From positions 1,088,001 through 1,152,000 of the forward strand of contig OY760937.1 of NCBI GenBank assembly GCA_963664225.1: a stretch of DNA of 64,000 bases. Reading direction: 5' to 3'. This DNA comes from Verrucomicrobiia bacterium. GTDB lineage: Bacteria > Verrucomicrobiota > Verrucomicrobiia > Limisphaerales > UBA1319. Of the stretch, positions 2 to 60,676 are shown piece by piece; the stretch's first letter is position 1; each line of letters begins with the position of its first letter. Made by a program: the position numbers and the translations under genes. The notes beneath the pieces are model-generated. The model saw only the letters and a program-made list of their open reading frames with translations, was not told the origin of the DNA and did not search any database.

Positions 2-3000
2 GATTTTCCGATTTCGGCCGGGGATTGGTTTTACTCGGTGGGCAATAACAGCGGGGAATTTGTGCAATTTGACGTTCAGACATCCATCATTGTTTCCAAT
101 GCCTACGGGAATTACTACCAGGTGCTCAAGCAAATCAACGATGACTGCGGGCCCTACTACCGTTACGAGACCGGCACCAGCATGTCGGCGCCGGTGGTGT
201 CTGGAATCCTGGCGTTGATGAAGGAGTTTTTCGAGCAAAAGCTGCCTGCGGACAAGCGTATGACCAACAGCCCGGCCCTGATGAAGGCGCTGATCATCAA
301 TGGCGCGCATTCGGTGAGCGGGCGTTATGATCTCTCGCCAAACAAAACTCGCAATATCGAGGGTTGGGGCATTGTGGATCTGACCAACAGCATTCCGATG
401 GCCTTAACCAACGGCGTTACCACCAACGGACCTTTGGTGCTGGTGGAGCAGAGCGTGACGAACGCCCTGGCCACGACGCAAAGCAAGACCTGGGCGGTTG
501 GTGTTTCGTCCGATGCCACTAATTCAGGCCTGAAGTTCACGCTTGTGTGGACCGATCCCCCAGGAAATCCGAATGCCTCTTCCAAACTGGTCAACGATCT
601 GGACCTGGTGGTGACTAATCTGGACACGGGGGACGTGTATGTGGGCAACGACATTCCTGAGCAGAGCGATTATAACACCGTTCAAACCACAAACAGCGTT
701 TCCCGATTCGATTTGGTGAACAATGTGGAGAATGTATTCATCCGCGAGGCCAGGGGCACCAACTACAGCGTGACCGTTCTGGGACGACGTGTGAATGTAA
801 ACGCGGTGACGGCCAATACCAACCTTGTGGTGCAGGATTATGCGCTGGTGATCTCCTGCGGCGACCTGACACTGACCAACGGCCTTGGATTGACGGCCCT
901 GGCGCCGGTGAGTTCCGTCGCAACCACGAACGCGCTGGTCACGCGCCCGACGAGGGAAATAACCAATGGCGTGGCGTTGATGAACGAGAGGGTGGGCGCC
1001 AACTCGGCCTTGGCCTCGACAAACCGTGTCCTCCCCCTGGCGGCCACGAACGGCACGGCTGTGCAGTGGAATTTTTACGTGTTTACCAATTCCATTTCGA
1101 CCAATAACCCAACAGGTCTCACCAATGGTCCCAACGTGGCTTTCATTACTTTCCAACCGCCGAACCTGTCCAATTCGAGGTTGTTGGATGCGGATATCGA
1201 CCTGTATGTTTCCACTAATCCGGCGTTGACCAATCTGGATCCGCTGGTGATTTCCGCGGCGGACAAGTCCACAAGTCGCGGAGGGACGGAACTGGTGTTT
1301 TATACCAACGCGCCCTTAGGCCGGGTTTACTACATCGGCGTGAAATCCGAAGACCAAAAGGCGGCGGAGTACGGGTTCATAGGATTGTCGAGCCAGGTGC
1401 CGTTTTCGCAGAACATCAATGGGAGCATGCTGATGCAGGTCTTTCCACTATTTCAGGTTATTCCCGATGGCGCGGCTGACCGGCCGGGCCGCACGAATGC
1501 CTTTGCGATCGGGACCTTCCCGCTGAAGGTCGGCAGGGTGGTGGTGACCAATGTGATCACCCATCAGGATTTGGGAGACATAGTGGAAACCCTCAGCCAT
1601 AACCAAAGCTATGTGACACTGTTCAACCACAATTTGAACAACACAAATTTTGCGGGGACGAATATGATGTTTGTCTTCGATGACAGCAATGGCGGAGGCA
1701 TTCCATTCAGTCGGCCCTCGGACGGCCCGGGTTCCCTGTTGGACTTTAAAAATCAGCAGGCGTTGGGTGTTTGGATGCTGAACATGACTGATAACGGACT
1801 GACGCACACCGGACGCGTTGAGAGTTGTTCGATCTGGATCGATCCGTTCCCGGCCTTGACCGGTCTGGCCGGCCGTGTCGAACCCAGAACCTGGCAGTAT
1901 TATGGAATTACAGTTCCGCCCGAGGCCACTAACTTGACGGTGACCGTTTGGGATCTCAACCCGGCGCTGCCCTTGGATGTGTATGTGCGCGGCGGAGATT
2001 ATCCGGGCGCCAATGTTTACGACAAGCATGTGCGCGTGGATCCGAACCTGCCGTTCGACCCCACCAAGCCGACGCTGCAATTGGGGTTGGGCGACTCGCC
2101 GCCCTTGGTTCCCGGGCAGTTCTATTACATCGGGGTGTATAATCCCAATAATGTGGCGATCGATTTCCGGATCGATGCGAGCCTTCAGTATGATTTGTCA
2201 GGCGGCTTGGCGCAGACCTTCATTTCCCAAGATACGCCGATGCCGATTCTGGACGATGCGTTGACGATTTCGAGCAACTTTGTGTCGCTCAACCGGCAGA
2301 TCATCGATGTGCGCGTCGGTTTGCGCATCGACCATCCCCGACTCTCGGATTTGTCCATTCATCTGGTAAGTCCGCAAGGCACGCGCGTGTTGCTGGATGA
2401 AAACCGCGGACAGCAAGCGGGGACGCAATTTGGTTATACCATCGGCACGAACATCAATTACGCGACTTTTGCTGAGCTGACGAATTATCCATCGACGCCG
2501 ATCAAATTCGCGCAGCCACAATTCACCAACAGCATCATCGGTCCGATCATCTATCAACAGGACTTTGAGACAGTGGCGCCGGGGAGCTACCCAACGGGAC
2601 CACGGTTCGATAACTGGCTGGTCATTGGCAATCCGGTGACGGTGTTGACCGATCCGGTGCTGGCCAATTCAGGAACGAATCTGTTGGAAATGTCGGGAAG
2701 CCGAATCCGGCGGGTGCTTCCGACACAGGCAGGCACAGATTACGAATTAACCTTTGCCTACCGGAAATATCCGTCGCTGGACGGCCTGATTGGTTGGTGG
2801 CCCGGTGAAGGCAACGGCAGTGATGTTTTCGGGCGTCAAAACGCATTGCTCACCAACGGGGTCATCTTCGAGAATGCCGTGGTCGGGCAGGGTATGAGGT
2901 TTAACGGCGTCCGCAATTACGGGGTTCTTACAGGGGATCCTGCGGCTTTGGCCGTTCCCCATTACACGGTTGAGGCCTGGGTAAAACCGCTGACCCAAGT

Positions 3001-5800
3001 GAATAATTTTCAGGGTCAGTCGCTTGTTTTTGGTCAGGCGTTTGGCCGGGCCCAATTGGTTTTGCGGCCGGGCACCACGGGCGTAAAAGTGGCCTGGCAA
3101 TTTGCCGACTCGCGCTTCAGCGTGGTGAGTGTGGAAAGCACCCGTGAAATTCCGATCAACCAGTTCACCCATCTGGCGGGAACCTGGGATGGATCGAATT
3201 TGCGGATTTATATCAACGGCGTGCTTGATGCCACGCTGGCCACTCCCAGCGCTCCCCGGTTGTCCACGGCGGGATTTTATATTGGCGGATTTAATTCGCG
3301 CGGCGCAGAGGGACTGGCGATCGGCCAGTACTTGAACGGAACGATCGACGAGATCGGTTATTTCAATGTTGCGCTTGACGCCACCAACATTGCCGCGATT
3401 TACGCAACGGGTTCGCAAGGGAAATGCTCAATGCAGGTTTCTCCGGAACCTTGCAAAGCGACTGTGAATGTCTCGCTGGCCGGGGTTGGTACCAATGATA
3501 TTTTTGGCGATTCGACATGGCAGGTGTTCAAGTTGCCATTCAAAGCGCCTGCCAACAATATCGCGATCAATCTGCAAAACACTCTGGGGAACATGCTGAT
3601 TGAGGATGTTGTCCTGCGCGAGAAGGGGCGGATCTATCAGGCGGAGGAGTCCCTGGAAGCGTTCAAGGACGAGCCCAGTCAGGGCAACTGGCGGTTGGAG
3701 GTTGAGGACTCCCGCGTGGGACCAGGGGTGGGTGCGCTGCCCGTGGCATCAATAGTGAGCTGGGAACTGCAATTCATCTTTGCGTCCCCATCGATCAGTG
3801 TCGTCACATTGACCAACGCCGTTGCCTATACCAACGTTGTCGTTGGCGGCGACACGAAGTATTTCAAGATTGTTGTGCCGCTCTCGGCGCATTTCGCCAC
3901 GAATACGCTCACTGGCACGGGTGACTTGATCCTGATCGGAAACCGGGCGGGGCTGCCCACGGGGGATTCGTTGCTCGACGATTATTATGTCGATAACCGG
4001 GGTGTGAATGGCGGCGAATATCTTTTGTTGAGCACAGGCAGTCCGCTGAACGCTCCCTTGCAACCCGGCGGTGTGTATTACCTCGGGGTGAGGAATAAGG
4101 ATCCGAGGCAGAACAACACCTTCAGCATACGCGTGGATTTCGACCAGGTCGATCAGCCCGCGAATGTCATCACGCTAACGAGCGGCGTTCCCATCACCCG
4201 TTCGGTGAACCAGGGAAACCTCCCGGATTATTTTCGGTTCACCGTGACCGCGCTGGCCTACGAGGCCACATTCGATCTCTTCCCGAGCAACGGCGATGTC
4301 AATCTGGTTTTGCGCAAGGGAGGGCCTGAGGTCGATCCGCTTCCGACGCTGACGCGCTATGATTATGCCAGCACGCAACCGGGCACCACGCCCGACCAGG
4401 TGGTGGTCACAACCAATTCGTTCCCGGTCAAATTGAGTCCCGGTGTCTGGTATCTGGCGGTGTATAATGCGGATACCAATACTGTGGACTATACCATCCG
4501 CGCGACGGAGTTCCTGAACATCGTCACCAACGTGGTGCAGCTGACAAATAATGCACCGCTCAATGCGCAGCAGACCTTTGGTCCCTATCTGACCAATTTC
4601 TACCGTTTGAGCATTACGGAGACCAATCCAAGCTTCCGTCTCGATCTGTATAATCTGACTGGGAACGGGAATCTGGTGTTGCGCCGGGGACAGTATCCGA
4701 CCAGCAATCTTTTCGATGCATCGAGCATCAATCTCGGGACCAATTCCGAGACCATCGTGGTGACCACCAATGCGTTGGCGCCCGATCTCAATGGGGACTG
4801 GTATGTTGCGGTGCTCAATCGGGAAACCAACGCGGTGGACTTCACCTTGCGGGCCATTGTTGCTCCGCAAGTAACACCCCTGGCCGATACTGTGGGGATC
4901 ACTGATGTGGTCAAGGCGGGGCCGGGCTGGCATTATTACTCCTTTAATGTAAGCACGGACGCTGTGGCGGCCTCGTTCGAATTGCTGCCACAGAATGGCG
5001 ATGTCGGTTTGTATGTGCTTAACTCGACCAATATCCTTTATCCCTGGCCGACGCTGACGAGCTACAATTACCGCAGCGACCAGTCGGGAACAAATCGGGA
5101 GTTGATCACGGTATCGACCAATTCAATCCCGAAAGCACTGACTGGAGGGACTTGGTTTGTCGGCGTGTATAATCCCGGCACGAACGCTGTGATTTATCAG
5201 ATCATGGCCACCGAGCTGCGTCCTTCGGTTACGCCGATCATCACACTGTTCAACAATGTGATTGTGAATCGTCCGGCGTTGACCAACGGCAATGTCGCGT
5301 ATTTCCAATTCCAGGTCAGCGTCCAGGCGACGCAGGCGATTTTTGAGACGTTCTTTGCCACTGGAAATATGAGCCTCTATGCGCGGCAAGGTCTGCCTTT
5401 GCCCACACCTGTTAATGCGCATTTCAGCAGCACGAATGCCGGCGCGGCGGATGAGATGATCCGGGTTTACACGAATTCGCAGCCTGTGGCGTTGAGTCCG
5501 GGCTGGTGGTTCCTGACGGTCAGCAACAGTGATGTAAGTCCTCAGAAATATTCGATTCGCGCGGTGGAATTGTCAGCGACCCCGCTGGCGATCCGTCCGC
5601 AATTGAGTTTCAGTCCCTCGACGGTGTGCCTGACTTGGAGTTCGTTGATCGGCGAAAGTTATTCGATTCAGGGTAAGGCCAAAATCACCGATCCGATCTG
5701 GATTCCGCTCGCGCCGACACAGGTGGCCAGCAATCAATTGACCACGATCTGTCTGCCGACTCCGGCCACGAACCAATACTTCTTCTGGGTGCATCCGTGA
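2..5800 (+). CDS. Giant secreted S8 (subtilisin-like) serine peptidase with P-domains, LamG-like domain, PPC-like repeats and C-terminal sorting-like domain; 5' end lies outside the window
   Basis: The frame is open from base 2. Catalytic-Ser motif GTSMSAPVVSG and 'SPALMKALIINGA'. Proprotein-convertase P-like segments (ITHQDLGD..., IDHPRLSDLSIHLVSPQGT). LamG motif (YTVEAWVKP...HLAGTWDGSNLRIYINGVL). About 5 tandem ~120-aa PPC-like repeats near the C-terminus. Confidence 0.9.
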   Translation, partial: DFPISAGDWFYSVGNNSGEFVQFDVQTSIIVSNAYGNYYQVLKQINDDCGPYYRYETGTSMSAPVVSGILALMKEFFEQKLPADKRMTNSPALMKALIINGAHSVSGRYDLSPNKTRNIEGWGIVDLTNSIPMALTNGVTTNGPLVLVEQSVTNALATTQSKTWAVGVSSDATNSGLKFTLVWTDPPGNPNASSKLVNDLDLVVTNLDTGDVYVGNDIPEQSDYNTVQTTNSVSRFDLVNNVENVFIREARGTNYSVTVLGRRVNVNAVTANTNLVVQDYALVISCGDLTLTNGLGLTALAPVSSVATTNALVTRPTREITNGVALMNERVGANSALASTNRVLPLAATNGTAVQWNFYVFTNSISTNNPTGLTNGPNVAFITFQPPNLSNSRLLDADIDLYVSTNPALTNLDPLVISAADKSTSRGGTELVFYTNAPLGRVYYIGVKSEDQKAAEYGFIGLSSQVPFSQNINGSMLMQVFPLFQVIPDGAADRPGRTNAFAIGTFPLKVGRVVVTNVITHQDLGDIVETLSHNQSYVTLFNHNLNNTNFAGTNMMFVFDDSNGGGIPFSRPSDGPGSLLDFKNQQALGVWMLNMTDNGLTHTGRVESCSIWIDPFPALTGLAGRVEPRTWQYYGITVPPEATNLTVTVWDLNPALPLDVYVRGGDYPGANVYDKHVRVDPNLPFDPTKPTLQLGLGDSPPLVPGQFYYIGVYNPNNVAIDFRIDASLQYDLSGGLAQTFISQDTPMPILDDALTISSNFVSLNRQIIDVRVGLRIDHPRLSDLSIHLVSPQGTRVLLDENRGQQAGTQFGYTIGTNINYATFAELTNYPSTPIKFAQPQFTNSIIGPIIYQQDFETVAPGSYPTGPRFDNWLVIGNPVTVLTDPVLANSGTNLLEMSGSRIRRVLPTQAGTDYELTFAYRKYPSLDGLIGWWPGEGNGSDVFGRQNALLTNGVIFENAVVGQGMRFNGVRNYGVLTGDPAALAVPHYTVEAWVKPLTQVNNFQGQSLVFGQAFGRAQLVLRPGTTGVKVAWQFADSRFSVVSVESTREIPINQFTHLAGTWDGSNLRIYINGVLDATLATPSAPRLSTAGFYIGGFNSRGAEGLAIGQYLNGTIDEIGYFNVALDATNIAAIYATGSQGKCSMQVSPEPCKATVNVSLAGVGTNDIFGDSTWQVFKLPFKAPANNIAINLQNTLGNMLIEDVVLREKGRIYQAEESLEAFKDEPSQGNWRLEVEDSRVGPGVGALPVASIVSWELQFIFASPSISVVTLTNAVAYTNVVVGGDTKYFKIVVPLSAHFATNTLTGTGDLILIGNRAGLPTGDSLLDDYYVDNRGVNGGEYLLLSTGSPLNAPLQPGGVYYLGVRNKDPRQNNTFSIRVDFDQVDQPANVITLTSGVPITRSVNQGNLPDYFRFTVTALAYEATFDLFPSNGDVNLVLRKGGPEVDPLPTLTRYDYASTQPGTTPDQVVVTTNSFPVKLSPGVWYLAVYNADTNTVDYTIRATEFLNIVTNVVQLTNNAPLNAQQTFGPYLTNFYRLSITETNPSFRLDLYNLTGNGNLVLRRGQYPTSNLFDASSINLGTNSETIVVTTNALAPDLNGDWYVAVLNRETNAVDFTLRAIVAPQVTPLADTVGITDVVKAGPGWHYYSFNVSTDAVAASFELLPQNGDVGLYVLNSTNILYPWPTLTSYNYRSDQSGTNRELITVSTNSIPKALTGGTWFVGVYNPGTNAVIYQIMATELRPSVTPIITLFNNVIVNRPALTNGNVAYFQFQVSVQATQAIFETFFATGNMSLYARQGLPLPTPVNAHFSSTNAGAADEMIRVYTNSQPVALSPGWWFLTVSNSDVSPQKYSIRAVELSATPLAIRPQLSFSPSTVCLTWSSLIGESYSIQGKAKITDPIWIPLAPTQVASNQLTTICLPTPATNQYFFWVHP

Positions 5801-36230: not shown

Positions 36231-37010
36231 TTACGGTTCGAGCTGGAAGAGGGAATCCGGCAGGCGACCGATTATTTGTTCCGGGAGGCGTGCATCCAGG
36301 GAGCCAGGATCAGGTTTTTCGATACCGATATGGTTATCGCAGAAAAGAACGTTCGCCTTTTTAACATGTCTGAAATGTACGGTGGCCTCGGCCCGGTTTG
36401 TGCCAATATAGTAAAATTCCTCGAGCATCGGGTGATCGCGGGAGGCCGGTGCCTGGAAATCGTTGATTTGCGCCGCATCCGCCATGAGGGCCAGTTGTGA
36501 AGGATGGGGGATTTTAGAGACCTGAAACGGCGGCGCGCTCAATGGGGATGAAAGCAGGAAATTGTAGCCGTAGCCATAGGCGGCGCCCACAGCCTTGAGT
36601 TTAAACTGGCTCATGGCGTAATTGAGCGATGGGCAGATGCTGATACCGCGGCCCGTCAGATAGGCGCGAAGGGCCCCCTGGGCAGGATCGAAAGCGCGCT
36701 GGCTTTCATTGCCGCGTTCAAGCCAGCCAAACCAGTAAATATCCCCTCCGTTTGTATAAGCCCCCCGGTAGCGAAAGGCCCGGCCATCATTGTCATCCCA
36801 ATACATGTGAACGGCCATCCCCAGTTGCCGCAAATTCGAGCCGCATTGGACCCGGCGGGCTGATTGGCGGCTGCGGCTTAGCGTGGGCAGGAGCAGGCTT
36901 GCCAGCAATGCGATGATTGCTATGACGACCAGCAATTCAATCAACGTGAACGCAGATATCCGCCGTGTGACTATTTTGCGCAGATTTCCGGTTGTCCAGA
37001 GAATCATCAT
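36231..37010 (-). CDS. Prepilin-type N-terminal cleavage/methylation protein, DUF1559-like with H-X9-DG-type motif
   Basis: [46 protein letters not shown]-terminal [17 protein letters not shown] 37010 overlaps the upstream stop (ATGA). Confidence 0.9.
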
Positions 37011-37987
37011 GGGAGCACGGCTTTGACTCGATAAAACGCAAAATTGACGGGGGCGTTGGTATCGGTAATGACGATGGGTGCCGTGTCGCCCAAAACCGGG
37101 GTGGCGGCCGTTTGCCAGAAGACCAGGTCCACACTTCTTTCCATCGTGTAGAACCATCGCGGGCTGCCATTGAATGCCGCCTGGTTTTGATTGTTTTGGA
37201 GCACGAATCGCAAATTGCGGATCGGCGGGTCTGGAAACGTCAGGATTAAATTGTCAATGGTGCCTTGCGCAAATAGGGACCCTGCAAAACCGGGTTGCTG
37301 GCCGATATCCGAATAGCTGGTGATGGATAAAGCGTTAATGCGGAAATCCACCGAGGCGTCGGGCAGAAGGACATCCTCAATGGGGCCAAACGGTTCGCCG
37401 TTGAGGGTGATCATTGTGGACAAGGCCTTCTTGGCAGCGGAGTAGGTCATTGTGATGTGGAACAAGCCACCCGGCGTTAGTTCCATTGGAAAATTGAAAG
37501 AAGGAAAGAACCGCGAATTGGTGGTGGAAATGACTGGAGAAATGGTGGCACCGAAACCGGTGTCTGGAAAGTACGTCCATTCAATGAGATTGGGAGTGTT
37601 GGCCGATGTGCCTCGAATAAAACCAGTCTTGAAGGCTTGTTCCAGATTCAAAAAGCCAAAGGCCAGCTCAAAGGCATATGGCTTGTCAGGATCAATGCCA
37701 GCTTGGATGTTGTGCATGACGAGATCAAGATCCAGGCTGAAATCGTCCGCCATACTGACAACCGTGTTGAGCGGATGGTAAAAGAAACTGTTCGAATTGG
37801 AGGAATCCCAAGTGACATCGAGCGCCTGGGATTCAACGTTCCATACAAACAGATTGGTTGCGCCGACCATTTTCCAGCCATTCGGAGCGGGATCACTTGA
37901 AAAATCCTCCCTCAACTCCGCGCCCCATGCCGTGGCAACGCTCAGGGACATCAGAAGGAACAGGGTCGCGAGACGCAATTGTTTCAT
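37007..37987 (-). CDS. Secreted beta-sandwich (lectin-like) protein with C-terminal sorting-like domain
   Basis: Signal peptide (…ATAWG/AE); EDFSSDP…W…IDNL jelly-roll pattern; C-terminus [13 protein letters not shown]…[20 protein letters not shown]. Confidence 0.7.
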
Positions 37988-38037
37988 AAAACGGCGGATT
38001 TTAAGAAATCTTTCGTATTAGCTCTGTATGCGGGCCG

Positions 38038-38865
38038 TCAATCTCGCACGCGCTTTTTCATGTGCCAACCAAGAAGACACAGGCCGGATGCTAACAATGC
38101 ACTTGTAGCCGGTTCAGGCACCGGCGAAACAGTGGAAAAACCGTCGATTTCATAATAACCGTCCAACACGTCGATTCGGACATATTGAACACTGTCGAGT
38201 TGGACCTTTTCTCCGTGATTGTCGATGGCCCAATCCAGATCATAGCCCGTGCCCCCGGCCGAGCCCGCATAAAGAGCGCGAATTCCGGCCAGATCTTTGC
38301 CGCCGAAATCAGAATCCTTGAGAGCGGGGTTCACGGGCAGAGTGAAGCTGCCAGATCCATCGGTGGGATAAAGCTTATCAAAGACCGGAGCCAGAGAGGA
38401 ATCCAGCGTGTAAAATGTTTGGTTATCCGGGCTGACAGAGATGCGCACCGCGCCCAGGCGTGGATTGAAGATGGAGCCATCTGTAATGCCACCGCCTGAG
38501 AAATCGCCGTTGGTAATACTGAATCCGGCACCTCCGAATACAATGAAATCAACCCCGTATGGATTCGATGGAGAATTGATGGCAGGGACCCCCAACTGCA
38601 CGGTGAGCGTTCCGTTGGTGCCAACGGCCAGCAATTGGCTGTTAAGATAAGGCGGGCTGAAAGGATCAACCGACCCGCCATACACGCCCGGTGTGACCCG
38701 CGAGGGTTCGCCGATGACGCTGGAAGAGTTGGTATAACTTGCAATGTTCGAACGAAGCGCGCCCGGATTGTAGTCCGTGACGGCGCTTGCAAAAGACGCT
38801 GCCTGGTTGGTGGAAACGGTCGTTGCCACGCTGGCTCCCAGAGCCAGCCACGATAGAATTCGCAT
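38038..38865 (-). CDS. PEP-CTERM cell-surface protein, candidate cobalamin-binding protein
   Basis: Signal peptide; C-terminal VPEPATSALLASGLCLLGWHMKKRVRD (PEP, TM, basic tail); first gene behind the cobalamin riboswitch. Confidence 0.85.
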   Translation of the reverse strand: MRILSWLALGASVATTVSTNQAASFASAVTDYNPGALRSNIASYTNSSSVIGEPSRVTPGVYGGSVDPFSPPYLNSQLLAVGTNGTLTVQLGVPAINSPSNPYGVDFIVFGGAGFSITNGDFSGGGITDGSIFNPRLGAVRISVSPDNQTFYTLDSSLAPVFDKLYPTDGSGSFTLPVNPALKDSDFGGKDLAGIRALYAGSAGGTGYDLDWAIDNHGEKVQLDSVQYVRIDVLDGYYEIDGFSTVSPVPEPATSALLASGLCLLGWHMKKRVRD

Positions 38866-39099
38866 GATTCAGTTTTTCGTTGGTTCCGCGTTAATGCGGA
38901 GGTTGCATTTTCTGGAGACCAGCGCGGAGTCTGGAAAAAAACCTCCAGACCCCGGCAAAACGGAGAATGAAGGCATCCAACGACCCCGCCGAAAACAGAT
39001 CAGCGGGCTGGCCTCATCCTTCTCTTTGACGGAGAAGCGGTTTGTGAAGATCAGGACCTGTAGCAGGTACAAGAAATTCACAAACCTGACGAGCGCAGC

Positions 39100-39330
39100 C
39101 AAACCGGTATCCTGACTTCGAGCTATTGCTTGAGAAGTGTCCGGCACACTGGAATGCATGATTCCGGAGTGTGCGAACGCCATTCAAACATGGACCTTGC
39201 TCCCGCCTTCCCAGTCCTGTGACCAGTGGCATCATGGAGCTTGTAACCCGTTACAGTGGCGCAACCGTCCCCGATTTTCACGGGGTTCCCTGACATTTTG
39301 CTGCGTATCAACACGCAAACCTCCACAAGT
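39100..39330 (-). promoter_or_regulatory. Cobalamin riboswitch
   Basis: Minus strand: AGGGAA-ccccGTGAAAATCgggg-acggttgc-GCCACTGTAA … GCCACTG … CTGGGAAGGC … AAGTCAGGATACC. These are the conserved core and B12-box elements in the correct order. Confidence 0.92.
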
Positions 39331-39364
39331 TACTCAGAACTTGTGACACGAGGTCTGCGATCTT

Positions 39365-52951: not shown

Positions 52952-55900
52952 TCAGGGCAGTTGCGGAGTCCGCACCCGGTAATATCGATTGGTTAGAGTG
53001 TCGGGATCGGTGATTTGGATCAGGCGCGTCGGTGGTCCTGAAACCGCAGGAACGTCCACCAGCCGTTGCCAGGAACCAGGCGTTAGCGAATCGCTGAACT
53101 CAATGGTGTAAGATTTCTCTGCCATTGCGGAGAAGGTCAATGTCAGCGAATTCCCCCTGGCTACCTTCAGGCTCAACTCACTGGTTGGATCGAGAGGATT
53201 GGTTCCGGCCAGGTATTCCTGGAGGTTGGTCATGCCATCGTGATCCGGATCGGCTCCCGGTGCCGCCTCGGCGTTGGAGTAGGAGCCAAAGTACAGAATC
53301 TGCCAGGCGTCAGGTAAACCGTCGTTGTTGGCGTCCACCGGGGCGCTGGTATTGGGTTGGCCGGGGGTCGGAACGGCGGTGAACCAATTCGCGGGATCAT
53401 TTCCATAGGCAGACAACGTCTGACGCTGCAGAGAGAAGCCTGTGCCCATGGCGCCCATGGACCAGGGCAATGTGCCAGAATAGCGAACCTCCTCCACCAG
53501 GACATAAGGGACATATCCCGCGTCGGGATGCGGCGCGACTTGCGGAGCATCGGGTCTGTAGAGGGCAACCTTGTCGCTGGAATTCCCCAGGTGACCGGTG
53601 TAAGGCCCGTAAATCGGGACGTCGGCGCTGGCTGGATAGCGGTTGCGGAATGCTTGCAGGGCGAGGGGATCCGCTGGATCGATGTTGACCAGCAGTAAAC
53701 GTCCTCCGGCGGGCAACGAGACATTCTGTTGGAATGTATAGCCCACACCGCCCTTGATCATCCAGGTGTTGGTGGAAGCCGCGGGATCAAAGAGAACCGC
53801 TGTGGCTGTCGAGATGTTTTGCAGCTCGATGAATTCATCGAGCGTGTTGTCCTCGCCATCGGCGAAGGTCGGCGGAAAGAACATGATTTCACTGATGACC
53901 ACCGGGCCGATCAGCGGCGAAGCGTTGGCAGCGCCCGTGCCCGTGCGGAATTGCTCGACTGTCTGGGGATGATCCATCCCGAAGGTGGTGGCGCTCATGG
54001 GAACCAGATCCACTTGGCCGATGCTGTTGGTATGGCGACCGAAGGAGACCCCGTTGGCGCCAGCGCCGAAAGATTTCACGGCGCGATATCCGGTCATTGT
54101 TCCATCCGGCAGCGCTTCGGACAGGCAGACGGAATCCCCATGGGCGGAGTTAAACGTGAACGGAAGGCCCGAGCCATTCGTGGGGCTGAACTGGTATTCA
54201 TAGAAGACAATGTAGCCGTGCGCCGGAATGGAGGTGCCGCTGGGAATCTGATATTTTTTGGGCGACTCCTGAACATTGCTCAGGAACCAACCGCTCAAAT
54301 CCACCGGGGCCGCGCCATCATTGTAGAATTCAACCGCATCTTCCAGCGGCGGATCGGTGTGGGTGAGGACTTCGTTAACCACCACACCATTCAAGGGTAG
54401 GTAGTTGCTCGTGCCGGGTGTTGCGCTGGTGGCAAAGCGGACGACGTTTGTCGATCCATCCGGGAATCGTCCCTCGGAGACGCCGGTCTGTTGAGTGGCG
54501 AACGAGACGGCCGTGATCAATGTTTCCGCGGATGAAAAGAGGCCTATGGTTTCGCCCGTCTTACTCAGTTTTAAGTTAACATGATCCGCGCCTGAATTGA
54601 GGCTGCCATCCGCAAGGAACTGGATGTAGCCATGAATTCCCGAGCCAATAAATGACAACGGCGGAACAGGCGAGAGCGTCTTTTGTGTCAGGTTGTCCGT
54701 GAAGCACATGCGCCCCAGAGCCACTGGCTGGGCGCCGCTGTTAAACAGCTCGAACCAGTCGCTTCCACTCGCGGGATCCGCCATCCACTCGTTAACGATC
54801 AGTCCGGCGGCGGTTCCCAGTCCGGCGGCACTGTTCATGGCGACGGGTGTGGGCACATTAAGCGTCCAGGTGCCTGTGCCATCCGGCACGCGCCCAATGG
54901 AGTAATCCGGGGTCTGCAGGCCAAAGGTAATGGCGTCTATCAGTCCACCGCCGTTGGTCGCGCTGTTGAACAGGAACACGGATGTCCCTTTGGCCGAAAG
55001 GTTGAAGCCCGTATTGTCCGCTGAGGCCGGTTGGTTGCTATCGCAATAAAGAAGCAGGAACCCATTGGCGGGAACGAGCGTATTGGTCGCGAAAACGAAT
55101 TTGCGCGGGATGTTGGGATCATCGCTGAGGCTTAAACCCGCCAGGTTGATTTGGTTGGTCGAGGTGTTGGCCAACTCGATCCAATCGGATGTGCTTCCGT
55201 TGGCATTGGTGATCGACTCATTGCTGGCGAGTATTTCGTTGAGAACCACCGGCACGCCTTCCGTGGTGGTGGTGATGATGTTGGTGGTGTAATGCACCGC
55301 GGATAGTTGCATGCCAAACACGTCGTCGGAACTGCTTCCATTGACCTGGTGAACCTCCACAGCGATGACGTTGTCACCCACTACTGGCTGATTCGTTAAA
55401 ATGAGAAATTCCGGCGCGCCTTCATTAGGCTGATCCCCCGCGGTTGTCGCGTAGGTAACCACATCGGGCATCCGCAACGAGCCTGAGCGAACGCCATTCA
55501 GGTAATACACCGCTCCGTCATCCACAAAGTTGGTTGAGACCAGGACAATATTGTCCAGGCTTCCGTCCCATTGGAAATGAGTGCGATAATACACGGTAAT
55601 ATGACCGTTGGCCTGGGCCGGGGCAGGGATGGTGGTCACGAAGGGATACGGGTACTCCAGCGGAGTTGTCTCGCGGCCAAAGAGTCCCGTGCCGGTTGGC
55701 CAGGTGGAATCTGCGAATGCCGGTTCGCGCCAGGCGGTGCCGCGATCCGTGCCGGAGTTGTCGTAGCGCCAGGTGTTCGTAATGTCGAGCAGCTTGATGA
55801 CCTGCGAGGTGATATTGGTGACTGAAATTGTGCCTCCGTTCGCGACGGCATTGGGGCCGCCGGCGGTTGGCTGCGGGAAGCTCACAATGACATCACTGCC

Positions 55901-58900
55901 GCTGGGGCTGCGGCCCTGGGAGACGTCTGTGGACTGGGCGCCATAAGTGATGGTGTCGATCGGATTTAACAGGGCATCCGAAAGCAGAATGATTCCAACA
56001 TTCGGATTGAGCTTGAAGTTCAGATGATTTGCCCCCTGGGCGGGAGTGGCGTCCGCCACGAAGGACAGGTATCCACCGGCATCGATGTAACTGAATGCGG
56101 CCAGCCGATTGAGGTTTGGAGCGCCCTCGGCATTGGACAGATAGCAGCCTTGGAGGGCCACAGGATTGGTGGCCGTATTGTAAAGCTCCACAAAATCATT
56201 GTTCGCCAGGAACATGGAATCCGCCAGCCATTCGTTGATTTTCAAGTGATGGGGATCGTCCAGTGCCAGCGCAATGTTTTCACCTCCGAATGTGGGACGG
56301 CACAGAACCCAGGTGCCGTCCGCGGCGCGGCCCAGGGAGTGATCCGTTATTTGCTGGCCAAAGGTAATGGTGTCCAGAAGCCCGCCGCCGCGAATGCTTG
56401 AGTCATGGAGGAACAGGCTGTCTCCCGTTTGTTTCAAGGCGTAGCCAAGGTGCAAACCGTCCGTGCTGAACGCGCTGTCACCATACAAAACAAGGTATGC
56501 CCCAGCCGCCAGGGTGGTCCCAGGCGAGAAGGTGAAGGCGTAAGGTTGGAGGGAACTGGTGCTCAGGCCCATTCCCGATAAATCGACCGTGCTGGTCCCG
56601 TAGTTATGGATCTCGACCAGGTCCGGCGTGGTCCCGGCGTGGATCAATGCCGCTGAGTTCTTGGCCAGGATTTCATTGATCCGTATTGCGGGTGTTGTGG
56701 CGGGTGTCCAGGAGCTGTCGACCACCCATGTTCCGGTCGAGGTGATGATGGTCTCTTCACCCAACGCCGGATCATCCTGGTACCAACCGGAATCGCGTTT
56801 GCCAGTCACATCCACGGAATGGGGCCCGTTGGCAAGATTGGCAACCGTGATGGGCGTGGCAATGCCCGTTTCCGCGCTCCAGGCGCCGCCGTCCAGCCGC
56901 CATTTGTAGGCGACATAGCCCGATCCCTGTGGAAATCCCGCCGTGGGGATGCCAGATCCAGTCCGATTTACACCCACAAAGAGTGTGGCCGTGGTGAGGT
57001 TGTTGGTTCCTTTGGGGGCTCCCGAAATGGAGGCGCCAATCGGAATATTTCCACCCATGTCGCGACCATTGGGGCCGGTTCCACGCGCTGGGGAGCCAGG
57101 CAGCAGGCTCAACCAATCCCGCATGATTTGGGCGTCCTGCCAGTTGGTGAAGAAGGTTTCCGACACCTTTGGAATGTATGTCAGCAGGGGAGCGATTACC
57201 TGGTTGTTCGTACCCGGACCGGTCCATGCAAAAGGCAGGATGTTATTATTGAAGGTCACAGTCACCTGCGCCGGATCGTAATTGCGCACCAGTTGCTCGG
57301 CATCCTGAACAATATTTCCCTCAAGGTAATAGCCCTTGCCGAACGTGGTGATTGAAGGAGTGGTGTCGCGGACATTGACCACTCCCGAGTCGAAATCCTG
57401 TCCTCCGGCTTTGGTGGCGTGGATGATGGTGTTGTTGATCAGGGTGAAGTAATTCCCTTCCTTGATGGTGGCGGCGTTGTCGCAGTCGAAGAAGATGTTG
57501 CCGATGGCCGTGATCTCGGATGTATGCCCTGAATCGGCGCCTCCAGATATTGCGCTGGAACTGTCTGGAGAACCATTCCTGTGATTGTGCAGGAAAATGT
57601 TGCCCTCGATCCAGGCATCCGTGCCGTCCAGATCGAGGATGTCGTCACTGGCTCCCGCAAAGACGTTGTTGTAATACTGGATGATGGGCTGGCCCAGATC
57701 GCGATTGCCCCCGGTGAAATCCATGATGTCGTTATAACCCGTGGTCGTGCCAAAGAAACACTCCCGCACGATGCCCCGTCCGCCTGCCTTGACCCCGCCT
57801 GTGCCATGGAGCAATTCAAAGGGAGCCGTCGTGGTCGGAAAGACGCAGTGACTGAGCAGGAACGAGCTGCCATCCAGTGCGACATACTGGTGGGTGGTGG
57901 TTCCAAAAGTGGCGTGATCGAGGTAAATCGTGCCTCCGGCAACCTCGATGCAGGTTGTTCCGTTGCCCTCGAAGTGGACATAAGCCAGACGGGTCTCCGG
58001 TGAACCCACCGCGCCATCGATTGTCATGCCGCCCCAACTCACGCCAGTCCCGGGAGTCGTGGTGAAGAGGATGGGCTGCGTGTCCGTCCCTTCGGCTACG
58101 ATGCGACCGCCGTTGGCAACGACGATGTTCACACCGGAACCGAGATAAACCGTCGTGCCCGGTTCGATGGTGAGCGTGCTGCCGCTGTTCACGGTAAGGC
58201 TCGAGGTAATATTATAAGGCCCGCCTGCTGCGGTCCAGGTGGTGTTGGCGGCAATCGCGCCTCCCTCGGTTTGAACCGAGCCATCGTCATACCAGATGTC
58301 CGAATAGGTCCGGGCGCGTTCAATGCCATTCGCGTCGAGCGATTGAACCAGGACGTGGTTGATGCCCGGGGTCAGCGGCACATTGCTGATGGACCAGGTT
58401 CCCTCCCAAGCCACCCAGGCGGCGGCGATTCCATTGACCTTTACGCTGCGGGTGTCAATCGCGTTGGCGGCGCCCGTCAGCGAAACACTCCCAGTGGTTG
58501 TGTGGGGATAACCGCTCTGAACCGCCAGTGCATTTGAAACGGATAAGGAAAGGGGGATTTGAGAGAGCACCCAATTGACCTGCGCGGCGTTATACGCCTT
58601 CATGTTGTCGATTTTGTCCTGGGGCACCCACGAATTGAATAGTCGATCCAGCAGCGAATTCATCTGGTCAGGCCTGAACGCTGTATCCGCCAGTGTTTTA
58701 AGCCAGCGATAATAGATCGGGGCGAACTCGGGTGTCTTCATGAACTTGTTCATGACACTCAGGGCGTTCATCCGGAAAATGCTGTGCCTGGGCGGAATGG
58801 GTGTCAGACCTCGTCCCATCATGGTGTCCATGTCATAGGGTGTGGCTAGAAATCGCGTATCCGCCGCGCCGCGGTAAAGCGCGTAATCATCACCCACGCC

Positions 58901-60676
58901 GTTCGCCAGACAGGTCTCACCGTTATCCAGCAGCGTGTCGATGGCCATGTATTTCATCCATTCGTCCACGTTGATGCGTTTTTCCATGTCCGCCACGTAA
59001 TTCGATGGGGAATGGCCATTAACGCTATTGAGCACGGCAATCAGATCGATCAGATCGGACCAATCATTCTGAAGGGTGTTGTTCTGCTTGAAATAGGTGT
59101 TGGTGTAAACCTCCTGGGCAAAGTCAGCCCCGTGCCAGGTGAGATCCGCAACGTTGTTGGCATACTGGGGATCGCTCAACGCGGCCTGACGGATGCCGCG
59201 ATAGGAATTGCCATTGGGGTCCAGAGGAAACGCGCGCTGGATAAAATCCTTGTTGTATTGTTCGTTGGCGGCGTAAGCGCCGTAGGAATTGTTATCGGGC
59301 AACCCGGAAAGACTCATGAGATTGGTCCCGTTGATGCGAACCTGAACCGCGCGCGATTCTGCCATCGGGATATCGAGACTCCGATAAACCGTGCTGCCCA
59401 GCACCTGGCTGTAACTGTATTGTGAATTAAGATTGATGCCCGTCAGACCTTTCCAGGAACGATCGCCCGGGATGTTGACATGGTAATTATTCGGATTGGA
59501 CAAACGCGTGCCATGCCCGCGATTGCGCACGCCGCAATTGTAGCGGAGCTGGAGCGTGGTGCCGCCAGTCATCACATTGTCAGAAGTAATCCAGGTCGCA
59601 TTCATCTGCGCATCGCTGTCGCCATCGGGAAAATTCCGGCCCATTTGATAAAGTTCAGCGCGTTCGTCTTCCCGCATGATCACGCGGTACACCGGCTGCG
59701 CGCCTGTGTATGAGCTGTTGTCAACTTGATAGAGCAGGTTGGCCGTGCGTGAGGAGGCGGTGGTCAGGCTATACACCGGGTAGGTGCGCGTGTTGTTCTC
59801 CTTGTCCGTTGCCTGGAGGAAAAACTCGATCACGGTCCCGTTGGCCTCTGGCGCCATAAAAGCGCCATAAATGCCGTCGCCCGCCAATCCATCCCCATGT
59901 GTCCCATCATCATACATCGCGACGGCGGTAAAAGACACGGTTCCATCCGTCCGCCAATGAAGCGTGACGGTCACGCCATCGGCGTGTTCGTCTACTATCC
60001 GCGCGCTGATCGCCACGGTATCGGTGGAATTTGGAATCGCTGGTAAATGTTGAACCTCGGTAATAATCGGCGCTGCATTTGTGCGCGCGATGGAATTGGC
60101 GCGCCCCGGTGTGCCGCCAATCTCGGAACTGCTGCCCCAGTTTAGCGCGAAGGTGTTCGGCAGCAGGGGATTGACCAGCTCGAGCGAACTGCCCTGTCCG
60201 TCATGCGGGGTGTTCCATTCCCAGCCGTAGTGTCCGTAAGTGGCAAATCCATTGGTTGTCAACACGCGCGAGGACCAGTCGCCATCATTGTAATACTGCA
60301 CCTCGCTAATCACTTGGCCCAGAACGTCTGCGAGTTGCAGATGGCTACCCATGGGGGGCGTCCATCCCGAGAGGAAATTGGTCACGCCGGGATGCTTCGC
60401 CGCAAATACGGCTCCATCCGCCGCCACCACCAGATATCCCCCGGGGCTGAGAATCGTATTCGCAGGCATGACAAAATGCACTCCTTTAGTGAACTGCCAT
60501 CCGGACAAATTCGCCGCCACTGTCCCCGGATTATACAACTCGACATAACTTTCGAGCAGGTTCTCCGAGGAGGGGTGATACATGATCTCGTTTATGACCA
60601 CGTTCTGTGCGCGGGCGATCATCGCGGATCCCACCAGGAAACCGAGACACGTTAATATTCTTAACAGTTTCTTCAT
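52952..60676 (-). CDS. Giant secreted CotH-kinase / lamin-tail-domain / beta-helix protein with C-terminal sorting-like domain
   Basis: Signal peptide; repeated lamin-tail starts (VVINEIMYHP, IRINEILA, LKINEWLA, VVLNEILA, LIVNEWMA, VVVNEVL, VVISEIMF); CotH-like GVRNRGHGT…PYDMD; Ca-binding-type DANNDGLPDAWQ/DPDHDGMTNLQEY; C-terminus NRYYRVRTP. Confidence 0.88.
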   Translation of the reverse strand: MKKLLRILTCLGFLVGSAMIARAQNVVINEIMYHPSSENLLESYVELYNPGTVAANLSGWQFTKGVHFVMPANTILSPGGYLVVAADGAVFAAKHPGVTNFLSGWTPPMGSHLQLADVLGQVISEVQYYNDGDWSSRVLTTNGFATYGHYGWEWNTPHDGQGSSLELVNPLLPNTFALNWGSSSEIGGTPGRANSIARTNAAPIITEVQHLPAIPNSTDTVAISARIVDEHADGVTVTLHWRTDGTVSFTAVAMYDDGTHGDGLAGDGIYGAFMAPEANGTVIEFFLQATDKENNTRTYPVYSLTTASSRTANLLYQVDNSSYTGAQPVYRVIMREDERAELYQMGRNFPDGDSDAQMNATWITSDNVMTGGTTLQLRYNCGVRNRGHGTRLSNPNNYHVNIPGDRSWKGLTGINLNSQYSYSQVLGSTVYRSLDIPMAESRAVQVRINGTNLMSLSGLPDNNSYGAYAANEQYNKDFIQRAFPLDPNGNSYRGIRQAALSDPQYANNVADLTWHGADFAQEVYTNTYFKQNNTLQNDWSDLIDLIAVLNSVNGHSPSNYVADMEKRINVDEWMKYMAIDTLLDNGETCLANGVGDDYALYRGAADTRFLATPYDMDTMMGRGLTPIPPRHSIFRMNALSVMNKFMKTPEFAPIYYRWLKTLADTAFRPDQMNSLLDRLFNSWVPQDKIDNMKAYNAAQVNWVLSQIPLSLSVSNALAVQSGYPHTTTGSVSLTGAANAIDTRSVKVNGIAAAWVAWEGTWSISNVPLTPGINHVLVQSLDANGIERARTYSDIWYDDGSVQTEGGAIAANTTWTAAGGPYNITSSLTVNSGSTLTIEPGTTVYLGSGVNIVVANGGRIVAEGTDTQPILFTTTPGTGVSWGGMTIDGAVGSPETRLAYVHFEGNGTTCIEVAGGTIYLDHATFGTTTHQYVALDGSSFLLSHCVFPTTTAPFELLHGTGGVKAGGRGIVRECFFGTTTGYNDIMDFTGGNRDLGQPIIQYYNNVFAGASDDILDLDGTDAWIEGNIFLHNHRNGSPDSSSAISGGADSGHTSEITAIGNIFFDCDNAATIKEGNYFTLINNTIIHATKAGGQDFDSGVVNVRDTTPSITTFGKGYYLEGNIVQDAEQLVRNYDPAQVTVTFNNNILPFAWTGPGTNNQVIAPLLTYIPKVSETFFTNWQDAQIMRDWLSLLPGSPARGTGPNGRDMGGNIPIGASISGAPKGTNNLTTATLFVGVNRTGSGIPTAGFPQGSGYVAYKWRLDGGAWSAETGIATPITVANLANGPHSVDVTGKRDSGWYQDDPALGEETIITSTGTWVVDSSWTPATTPAIRINEILAKNSAALIHAGTTPDLVEIHNYGTSTVDLSGMGLSTSSLQPYAFTFSPGTTLAAGAYLVLYGDSAFSTDGLHLGYALKQTGDSLFLHDSSIRGGGLLDTITFGQQITDHSLGRAADGTWVLCRPTFGGENIALALDDPHHLKINEWLADSMFLANNDFVELYNTATNPVALQGCYLSNAEGAPNLNRLAAFSYIDAGGYLSFVADATPAQGANHLNFKLNPNVGIILLSDALLNPIDTITYGAQSTDVSQGRSPSGSDVIVSFPQPTAGGPNAVANGGTISVTNITSQVIKLLDITNTWRYDNSGTDRGTAWREPAFADSTWPTGTGLFGRETTPLEYPYPFVTTIPAPAQANGHITVYYRTHFQWDGSLDNIVLVSTNFVDDGAVYYLNGVRSGSLRMPDVVTYATTAGDQPNEGAPEFLILTNQPVVGDNVIAVEVHQVNGSSSDDVFGMQLSAVHYTTNIITTTTEGVPVVLNEILASNESITNANGSTSDWIELANTSTNQINLAGLSLSDDPNIPRKFVFATNTLVPANGFLLLYCDSNQPASADNTGFNLSAKGTSVFLFNSATNGGGLIDAITFGLQTPDYSIGRVPDGTGTWTLNVPTPVAMNSAAGLGTAAGLIVNEWMADPASGSDWFELFNSGAQPVALGRMCFTDNLTQKTLSPVPPLSFIGSGIHGYIQFLADGSLNSGADHVNLKLSKTGETIGLFSSAETLITAVSFATQQTGVSEGRFPDGSTNVVRFATSATPGTSNYLPLNGVVVNEVLTHTDPPLEDAVEFYNDGAAPVDLSGWFLSNVQESPKKYQIPSGTSIPAHGYIVFYEYQFSPTNGSGLPFTFNSAHGDSVCLSEALPDGTMTGYRAVKSFGAGANGVSFGRHTNSIGQVDLVPMSATTFGMDHPQTVEQFRTGTGAANASPLIGPVVISEIMFFPPTFADGEDNTLDEFIELQNISTATAVLFDPAASTNTWMIKGGVGYTFQQNVSLPAGGRLLLVNIDPADPLALQAFRNRYPASADVPIYGPYTGHLGNSSDKVALYRPDAPQVAPHPDAGYVPYVLVEEVRYSGTLPWSMGAMGTGFSLQRQTLSAYGNDPANWFTAVPTPGQPNTSAPVDANNDGLPDAWQILYFGSYSNAEAAPGADPDHDGMTNLQEYLAGTNPLDPTSELSLKVARGNSLTLTFSAMAEKSYTIEFSDSLTPGSWQRLVDVPAVSGPPTRLIQITDPDTLTNRYYRVRTPQLP

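Follow-up and report, generated by a model that had tools for sequence, protein, structure and literature searches.

Most microbes need vitamin B12 (cobalamin) but few make it, and its acquisition shapes microbial communities. In Gram-negative bacteria, known B12 uptake rests on the TonB-dependent receptor BtuB. We analyzed a 64,000-nucleotide (nt) stretch of DNA, hereafter the window, from a Verrucomicrobiia bacterium (GCA_963664225.1, contig OY760937.1, positions 1,088,001-1,152,000 of the forward strand; GTDB lineage Verrucomicrobiota; Verrucomicrobiia; Limisphaerales; UBA1319), in which a cobalamin riboswitch precedes three genes, here called p1, p2 and p3. Together these elements probably constitute a B12-repressed cassette for corrinoid acquisition, which holds the regulatory and functional place of riboswitch-controlled btuB in the window's order, Limisphaerales.

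The closest described capture proteins are those of Bacteroides. According to the available part of PMC8941943, BtuH2 binds B12 with a dissociation constant (KD) of 6.4e-12 M, BtuG1 combines a propeller with a BtuH domain (Putnam et al. 2022), and BtuH is described in Bacteroidetes and three Firmicutes species only. For DUF4465 (BtuJ), a family often linked to TonB and ABC systems, B12 binding has been shown by experiment, as stated in the available part of PMC13398666. Riboswitch-controlled B12-capture proteins are therefore known, and what is new here is a pilin-based architecture. We found no published description of the cassette, the supplements of the BtuH and DUF4465 papers being outside the scope of this search. 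Neither did we find literature pairing cobalamin riboswitches with PEP-CTERM or, by titles and abstracts, any on a Verrucomicrobia/prepilin cassette.

The riboswitch and its three genes

All elements of the locus lie on the - strand of the window:

39085-39335 (-), cobalamin riboswitch aptamer (RF00174; Rfam 59.3 bits, E-value 3.7e-12, model positions 1-189)
38935-38973 (-), terminator-like hairpin followed by seven T, about 70 nt before the p1 start, seen in the minimum-free-energy fold of the leader
38038-38865 (-), p1, 275 amino acids (aa): signal peptide, BtuH-like domain at about residues 20-247, PEP-CTERM segment at 248-271
37007-37987 (-), p2, 326 aa: signal peptide, lectin-type jelly roll at about residues 20-252, C-terminal beta domain at about 257-326
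36231-37010 (-), p3, 259 aa: prepilin N-terminus (AFTLIE) and globular domain with H-X9-D(G/N)

The canonical cobalamin riboswitch proposed upstream of the genes in a preliminary description of this DNA is borne out, since the whole RF00174 model is matched and the score lies above the gathering score of 31.5 bits. One peripheral arm of the aptamer is enlarged by an insertion of about 100 nt. RF00174 is the sole Rfam family reaching its gathering score within the window, and two scans of the entire host genome, a single contig of 5,783,426 bases that is 96.35% complete by marker genes, returned this one match (the first scan scored 150 of 415 candidates). On this prediction, p1, p2 and p3 are the only B12-regulated genes of the host.

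Between the aptamer and p1, the minimum-free-energy fold of the leader (z -4.9) contains the hairpin at 38935-38973, which was not flagged by a simple terminator scan because its stem carries an internal mismatch. Among 72 related loci, 62 have a hairpin of -10 kcal/mol or lower with a T-run between riboswitch and first gene, compared with 11 of 72 reverse-complement and 9 of 72 shuffled controls. The hairpin of the window is a candidate expression platform of an OFF switch that would act through premature termination. A promoter scan gave a single weak -35/-10 match at 39453-39426 (-), at the level of chance (2 found against 2.4 expected).

The three genes were described as co-oriented and tightly linked, with a gap of 51 nt and an ATGA overlap. 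Orientation and overlap hold: the p2 stop and the p3 start share the ATGA at 37007-37010, where the start of p3 was preferred from orthologue alignments (its open frame extends to 37157). The gap between p1 and p2 counts 50 nt (37988-38037) rather than 51. The simple terminator scan found no terminator-like site on the - strand between the cassette genes.

As first described, p1 is a PEP-CTERM protein (PF07589, 23.7 bits against a cut-off of 20.7; TIGR02595, 16.6 against 16), and Pfam finds nothing beyond this segment. Its signal peptide, read from the sequence, contains no cysteine. We compared the AlphaFold2 model of p1 (predicted local distance difference test, pLDDT, 82) with 350,542 PDB chains. 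The two best matches were BtuH2 (7biz_A; Z 12.4, root-mean-square deviation (rmsd) 3.5 over 155 aligned residues, 18% identity, chain residues 314-592) and the H-domain of BtuG1 (8blw_B; Z 12.1, rmsd 3.9, 160 aligned, 22% identity), which are the only two solved BtuH-domain proteins. The third match drops to Z 9.2, and CBM32 modules score around Z 8. A profile built from 30 p1 sequences also found BtuG1 as its best PDB sequence match (8blw_B, E 6.1e-5), in two collinear segments within the H-domain, with BtuH2 reaching only E 0.37. Fold and sequence profile both relate the globular domain of p1, a single-copy gene in the host, to the B12-binding BtuH domain of Bacteroides, a kinship that Pfam does not reveal. 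This extends the BtuH family beyond the taxa listed above.

No Pfam or NCBIfam family matches p2. Its AlphaFold2 model (pLDDT 89) shows a beta-sandwich followed by a C-terminal beta domain. Residues 20-252 align with peanut lectin (1ciw_A) at Z 16.5 and with numerous other lectins, as well as glycanases, at Z 12-15 (Foldseek E 1.7e-8), so that the model has the concanavalin-A-like lectin/glucanase jelly roll, an assignment of fold and not of family membership. The C-terminal domain of about 75 residues (37007-37240), which matches no Pfam family, is also encoded at the end of at least 15 other host open reading frames (ORFs) for secreted proteins of 92-2560 aa, always stopping within a few residues of the terminus (for example C1:1031866-1033587, -). 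Such terminal recurrence is expected of a sorting or anchoring domain, for which this domain is a candidate. Model and recurrence agree with the initial view of p2 as a secreted beta-sandwich protein with a sorting-like C-terminus. The family comprises at least 143 'hypothetical' proteins, labelled as Verrucomicrobiota wherever a label exists. BtuJ was not among the 50 matches listed for the p2 fold searches, which proves nothing, and the predicted p2-p3 complex (score 0.01, mark 0.32) is evidence neither way.

The host needs the vitamin. Besides a MetH with five domains (1242 aa), it encodes a corrinoid protein and B12-radical-SAM (S-adenosylmethionine) enzymes, and its genome has no CobS, CobD/CbiB or CbiC; it must therefore import complete cobamides. 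Searches of the host genome for Plug, Peripla_BP_2 and FecCD domains returned no match for any of them, while control genomes gave matches. The absence of BtuB and BtuFCD noted at the start consequently applies to the whole host genome, but does not extend to the family: 12 of 80 related cassettes contain a BtuF-like gene, and 89 of 102 p2-bearing genomes in the order encode at least one Plug domain. Local profiles run on the host genome found no BtuF-like, Dph6-like or CWC gene, and only a distant DUF6580 gene outside the cassette.

Conservation in the order and relation to btuB

We surveyed the recurrence of the cassette in two separate samples. The first derives from 119 encoded p2 relatives in species genomes, of which 80 were kept as loci. 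The second consists of order genomes, 151 from 108 genera for p2 and 150 for riboswitch counts, where linkage was judged on 99 p2-bearing genomes from the riboswitch matches listed; related genomes in it are not independent observations. In the first sample, 72 of the 80 loci have a riboswitch-like match upstream on the same strand. These are all 72 loci that could be evaluated, since in the remaining eight the contig ends at most 438 nt before the first cassette gene. Rfam confirmed the riboswitch at gathering score in each of the 20 related loci tested. p1 is present in 45 of the 80 loci and p3 in 64; eight of the 16 loci that lack p3 are truncated.

The order sample gave the same picture. 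Of its 151 genomes, 102 carry p2 (79 of 108 genera) and 70 carry p1. A listed riboswitch lies 214-2138 nt upstream of p2 in 82 of the 99 p2 genomes. In 31 of these the switch is found 214-399 nt before p2 and there is no p1; in the other 51 it is found 859-2138 nt from p2 with p1 in between. In five further genomes the switch fronts p1 on another contig. The survey suggested with the preliminary description thus found that the pairing recurs: the link between cassette and B12 switch is systematic and not a local coincidence, and the cassette is widespread in the order.

Some order genomes carry a second cobalamin riboswitch of 95-122 bits on another contig (G316 C29:1048-1234; G399 C2:390354-390537; G356 C328:1704-1895). 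In one related locus, a 6S RNA gene (76.4 bits, L080:4002-4185) lies about 170 nt downstream of p3.

Riboswitches were detected in 139 of 150 order genomes, and 121 genomes have exactly one. Among the matches listed, at least 25 genomes from 16 families have the riboswitch 314-496 nt before a TonB-receptor Plug domain, that is, before btuB, and none of these 25 has p2 or p1. The cassette and riboswitch-btuB are thus alternatives within the order, with complementary distributions among the matches listed. Both arrangements may occur within one genus: in g162, G395 has riboswitch-p1-p2 whereas G312 and G449 have riboswitch-Plug.

A third architecture was seen in genomes without full-length p2, where the riboswitch of the genome is followed by ORFs of 641-773 aa that contain a weak BtuH-like domain. 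In G345, G417 and G435, which have neither p2 nor Plug, such a larger ORF is fronted by the sole switch. The weak p1-like matches are:

G345 C1:7414-8175
G417 C39:19748-20473
G435 C1:142246-142965
G351 C1:1828560-1829333
G321 C1:134488-135264

The genes next to the cassette in the window are unrelated to it: a GT21 glycosyltransferase lies upstream, and an acyl-CoA dehydrogenase and an electron transfer flavoprotein-ubiquinone oxidoreductase (ETF-QO) lie downstream, none of which keeps this adjacency in relatives. The window also holds two very long ORFs, at 2-5800 (+; 1932 aa, open end) and at 52952-60676 (-; 2574 aa).

The pilin-like protein, its fusions and embedded genes

DUF1559 pilins are much expanded in bacteria of the Planctomycetes-Verrucomicrobia-Chlamydiae (PVC) group, and to our knowledge no function has been assigned to the DUF1559/H-X9-DG family. 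The DUF1559 literature shows no B12 link in titles or abstract openings, and the H-X9-DG literature is unrelated. The early identification of p3 as a DUF1559-like prepilin is supported by matches to N_methyl (26.9 bits against 21.2), TIGR02532 (23.1 bits) and DUF1559/SBP_bac_10 (PF07596, 30.9 bits against 23.3), the last covering only residues 47-71 and profile positions 3-27 of 268; the H-X9-DG model (TIGR04294) scores 12.6, under its cut-off of 19. In the alignment of 33 orthologues, H215-x9-D225 is followed by G in 31, by N in the window copy and by A in one other. The glutamate at +5 (E25) is invariant among orthologues. The 60 N-terminal residues match solved pilins (E 8.5e-11), while a sequence search of the PDB found no solved relative of the globular part. 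The Atlas groups p3 with DUF1559/H-X9-DG clusters at 0.98.

On the orthologue profile, the host p3 scores 401 bits, compared with at most 96 bits for the 39 pilin-like paralogues in the same genome. p3 is also more conserved than p2 (60% and 48% mean column identity, respectively) and is the most widely conserved part of the cassette. Judged from these alignments, it represents a separate and highly conserved set of orthologues within the DUF1559/H-X9-DG family. Residue -1 of the prepilin motif is alanine here and in 28 of 33 orthologues, where the canonical glycine would be expected. As a hallmark of p3 this alanine was rejected: it is weakly distinctive, being found also in 12 of the 32 motif-bearing paralogues of the host.

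Across its genome, the host has no Plug domain, yet it has seven secretin matches, one prepilin peptidase and about 33 ORFs with (G/A)FTLIEL, an unusual balance for a diderm of 5.8 megabases. None of the secretin or prepilin peptidase genes is linked to the cassette.

Several relatives join the cassette proteins in single polypeptides. p1 and p2 are fused in P0017, and in 15 order genomes they share an open frame. In P0138, a p2-like domain is followed by a PEP-CTERM-like segment, a prepilin motif and a p3-like domain. At least 17 protein clusters contain p3 orthologues (45-64% identity) that carry, at their N-terminus, a Peripla_BP_2 (BtuF-like) domain lacking a signal peptide: the BtuF-like domain begins at about residue 6 and is followed, in some proteins after a Cys-rich CWC domain, by the prepilin motif and p3. 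The corresponding features are:

P0121-P0137 and P0139, BtuF-like-p3 fusions
L078:2454-4664, BtuF-like-p3 fusion

The N-terminus of a pilin lies in the cytoplasm. The fused BtuF-like domains are therefore on the cytoplasmic side, and p3 crosses the inner membrane from them to the periplasm. These sequences would thus place a domain of the 'periplasmic binding protein' fold in the cytoplasm, from where prepilin peptidase might release it.

Further genes are embedded on the cassette strand of the 80 loci: BtuF-like genes in 12, all between p2 and p3, DUF6580 genes in eight, Dph6-like genes in nine and CWC/DUF5522 genes in 19. DUF6580 membrane proteins, Dph6-like ATP pyrophosphatases (PF01902) and CWC/DUF5522 proteins were seen between p2 and p3 in L047, L059, L062, L069, L070, L075, L078 and L054. 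DUF6580 has no PDB sequence match and nothing in NCBIfam, and we found no literature on it. For these three groups the cassette is possibly the first functional context, as candidates for a B12 pathway.

Outside the order, p3-type genes (164-224 bits) were found in 13 of 300 genomes of the phylum. A riboswitch lies upstream on the same strand in seven of the 11 such loci examined, with flanks of 1.5 kilobases (kb). In L104 a DUF4465 gene (166.7 bits) separates the switch from p3, and in L095 and L098 the intervening gene is a distant relative of p2 (hhalign 98.6% and 97.1%, respectively). As DUF4465 and p2-like proteins occupy the same slot, p3 is constant and the capture protein before it is exchangeable. 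p2 itself was found in none of the 300 genomes at E 1e-20; this reflects the threshold and divergence rather than absence, because distant p2-like proteins exist in the phylum.

Proposed function, alternatives and known systems

How might the cassette work? When cobalamin is plentiful, its binding by the aptamer would let the terminator hairpin and U-run halt transcription within the leader; when B12 is scarce, three envelope proteins would be produced. The BtuH-type domain of p1, anchored through PEP-CTERM, would capture corrinoid outside the cytoplasm. p2, with its lectin fold and terminal sorting or anchoring domain, would act physically with p1, because the two are one polypeptide in many relatives. 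As a dedicated pilin-like protein with a cytoplasmic N-terminus and a periplasmic globular domain, p3 could couple capture to passage through the envelope. Import into the cytoplasm would be finished by parts encoded elsewhere, for which the DUF6580 membrane protein is a candidate. Corrinoid binding, the location of the proteins, the order of hand-over and the mechanics of p3 are the parts that we infer.

Several observations weigh against this scheme. The residues of BtuH2 that contact B12 (Tyr510, Trp511, His476, Trp577, Asn399 and Gln333 in the available part of PMC8941943) could not be mapped onto p1 by the profile, in which unrelated proteins rank between BtuG1 and BtuH2, and the only alignable conserved tryptophan of p1 (W212) faces an asparagine in BtuH2. 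The fold of p2 is generic. The candidate identity of p2 as a hidden DUF4465 protein was rejected: neither p1 nor p2 matches PF14717 at E 0.1, and hhalign gives p2 a probability of 0.25% against a DUF4465 member. The preliminary description had envisaged surface-displayed corrinoid-binding proteins plus a pilin, which is partly supported: p1 is a candidate binder by its relation to BtuH, p2 shows a generic lectin fold only, and the globular part of p3 has no solved relative. Eight of the 80 loci have no p3 despite at least 3.6 kb of sequence downstream of p2. Among the 99 p2 genomes, 12 lack a linked switch, some being cut by contig ends, and two families with divergent or partial p2 matches show no riboswitch match at all. 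The Plug matches are the best 150 of 472, which makes the 25 riboswitch-Plug pairs a lower bound and confines the zero overlap to the matches listed. A tie between the cassette and a lack of TonB-dependent receptors was also rejected, as Plug is missing in 13 of 102 genomes with p2 and in seven of 49 without it. With a Plug domain elsewhere in 89 of the 102 bearers, most could still use a receptor without riboswitch link. Finally, beside its full MetH the host encodes a short protein that resembles MetE in the catalytic domain only (345 aa, 59.6 bits, C1:555877-556914) and might lessen its need for B12.

Only tentatively, and with considerable doubt, do we propose a more specific version in which p3 is the core of a TonB-independent import route, as a short pseudopilus or an inner-membrane relay driven by a secretin/pilus machine. 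Competence pili, for comparison, take up a large substrate by way of a secretin. Here, interchangeable capture proteins (BtuH-like, lectin-like or DUF4465) would hand corrinoid to p3, which would deliver it across the envelope either to a BtuF-like acceptor in the cytoplasm or to a DUF6580 permease, and DUF1559/H-X9-DG pilins would generally be substrate-specific uptake adaptors. If so, the expanded families of PVC bacteria would be adaptors of this kind, one per nutrient.

The alternative that survives best, although we hold it unlikely, is that the cassette serves capture or hoarding alone: p1 and p2 would hold corrinoid, as a reservoir or to starve competitors, transport would fall to a TonB receptor without riboswitch link or to another channel, and p3 would be an anchor or scaffold. 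The BtuH and BtuJ proteins of Bacteroides assist BtuB-BtuG and are not transporters (for BtuH, the available part of PMC8941943), and BtuJ1 is reported to be an 'extracellular vitamin reservoir'. The Plug domains of most p2-bearing genomes would fit such a division of labor, and the bitopic membrane topology of the p3 fusions suits an anchor. However, Plug domains are entirely missing from 13 p2-bearing genomes, the host among them, and riboswitch-btuB and the cassette exclude each other (0 of 25 among the matches listed). The conservation of p3, above that of p2, exceeds the need of a passive anchor, and its fusion to a cytoplasmic BtuF-like domain points to traffic across the inner membrane.

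Far less probable is that B12 acts as a cue, for instance of producer microbes nearby, which switches lectin-type adhesins and a pilin for attachment or glycan uptake with no corrinoid handling. The nearest folds of p2 are indeed carbohydrate-binding lectins and glycanases, p1 resembles CBM32 modules after BtuH, and pilins commonly serve adhesion. Yet the best matches of p1, by fold and by profile, are two B12-binding BtuH domains, and related cassettes embed BtuF-like genes or swap the upstream partner for the B12-binding DUF4465. Moreover, the switch fronts either the cassette or btuB, and being OFF at plentiful B12 is the classic pattern of uptake genes, established for RF00174-regulated btuB. 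That the switch governs p1 only, with p2 and p3 as unrelated neighbors, is hardly tenable: the 50-nt gap after p1 and the five genomes with riboswitch-p1 and p2 on different contigs would allow it, but the 31 genomes with the switch directly before p2 and no p1, the p2/p3 ATGA overlap, the p1-p2 and p2-like-p3 fusions and the lack of a terminator-like site between the genes on the - strand all speak against it.

As a B12-repressed corrinoid-acquisition cassette, the locus would bear on a large soil and freshwater order of Verrucomicrobiota, in which a single B12 switch sits on btuB or on the cassette and some bearers have no TonB-dependent receptor. These receptor-free bearers point to a second way of moving a 1.3-kDa cofactor through the diderm envelope. 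DUF1559/H-X9-DG pilins, of which the host alone holds about 39 as paralogues of p3, would gain their first ligand-linked, testable context.

Compared with the BtuH system, p1 has as its best fold matches BtuH2/BT1956 (7BIZ) and BtuG1/BT1490 (8BLW, chain B), the latter being also the best profile match, and like them it is an exported protein from a B12-riboswitch-controlled locus of a B12 auxotroph. The hosts differ, Bacteroides thetaiotaomicron (Bacteroidota) as opposed to Verrucomicrobiota. p1 has neither the lipoprotein cysteine nor PKD or propeller domains and carries a PEP-CTERM anchor instead, and its partners are lectin-fold and pilin-like proteins rather than BtuB-BtuG. It is not a surface lipoprotein of a btuB locus: its signal peptide has no cysteine, it ends in PEP-CTERM and its genome has no Plug domain. 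BtuJ/DUF4465 proteins (PF14717; PDB 9FCT and 9I2L, cited in the available part of PMC13398666) are likewise secreted jelly rolls under B12 control, and in L104 the slot of p1 and p2, after the riboswitch and before the p3-type pilin gene, is taken by a DUF4465 gene. Unlike them, p1 and p2 have no PF14717 match, with the low hhalign probability of p2 given above.

The BtuB-TonB and BtuFCD system of the E. coli type shares the cobalamin riboswitch logic, and in the order the same, usually single switch fronts btuB in at least 25 genomes; a BtuF-family gene also lies within some related cassettes. In contrast to that system, the host has no Plug, Peripla_BP_2 or FecCD proteins, and the BtuF-like domains of its relatives are signal-less and fused on the cytoplasmic side of a pilin helix. 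With the pseudopilins GspG and ComGC, which we use as a working analogy, p3 shares the canonical alpha-1 helix and the invariant glutamate at +5, and the host genome has a prepilin peptidase and seven secretin matches; the differences are a locus without linked assembly ATPase or platform gene and the alanine at -1 in 28 of 33 orthologues. Finally, p3 resembles the DUF1559 (PF07596)/H-X9-DG (TIGR04294) proteins of Planctomycetota and Verrucomicrobiota in its prepilin N-terminus and the start of DUF1559, with an H-x9-D(G/N) motif near the C-terminus that scores below the TIGR04294 cut-off. Its group stands apart from these proteins in being tied to a riboswitch and to partners of the B12-binding type.

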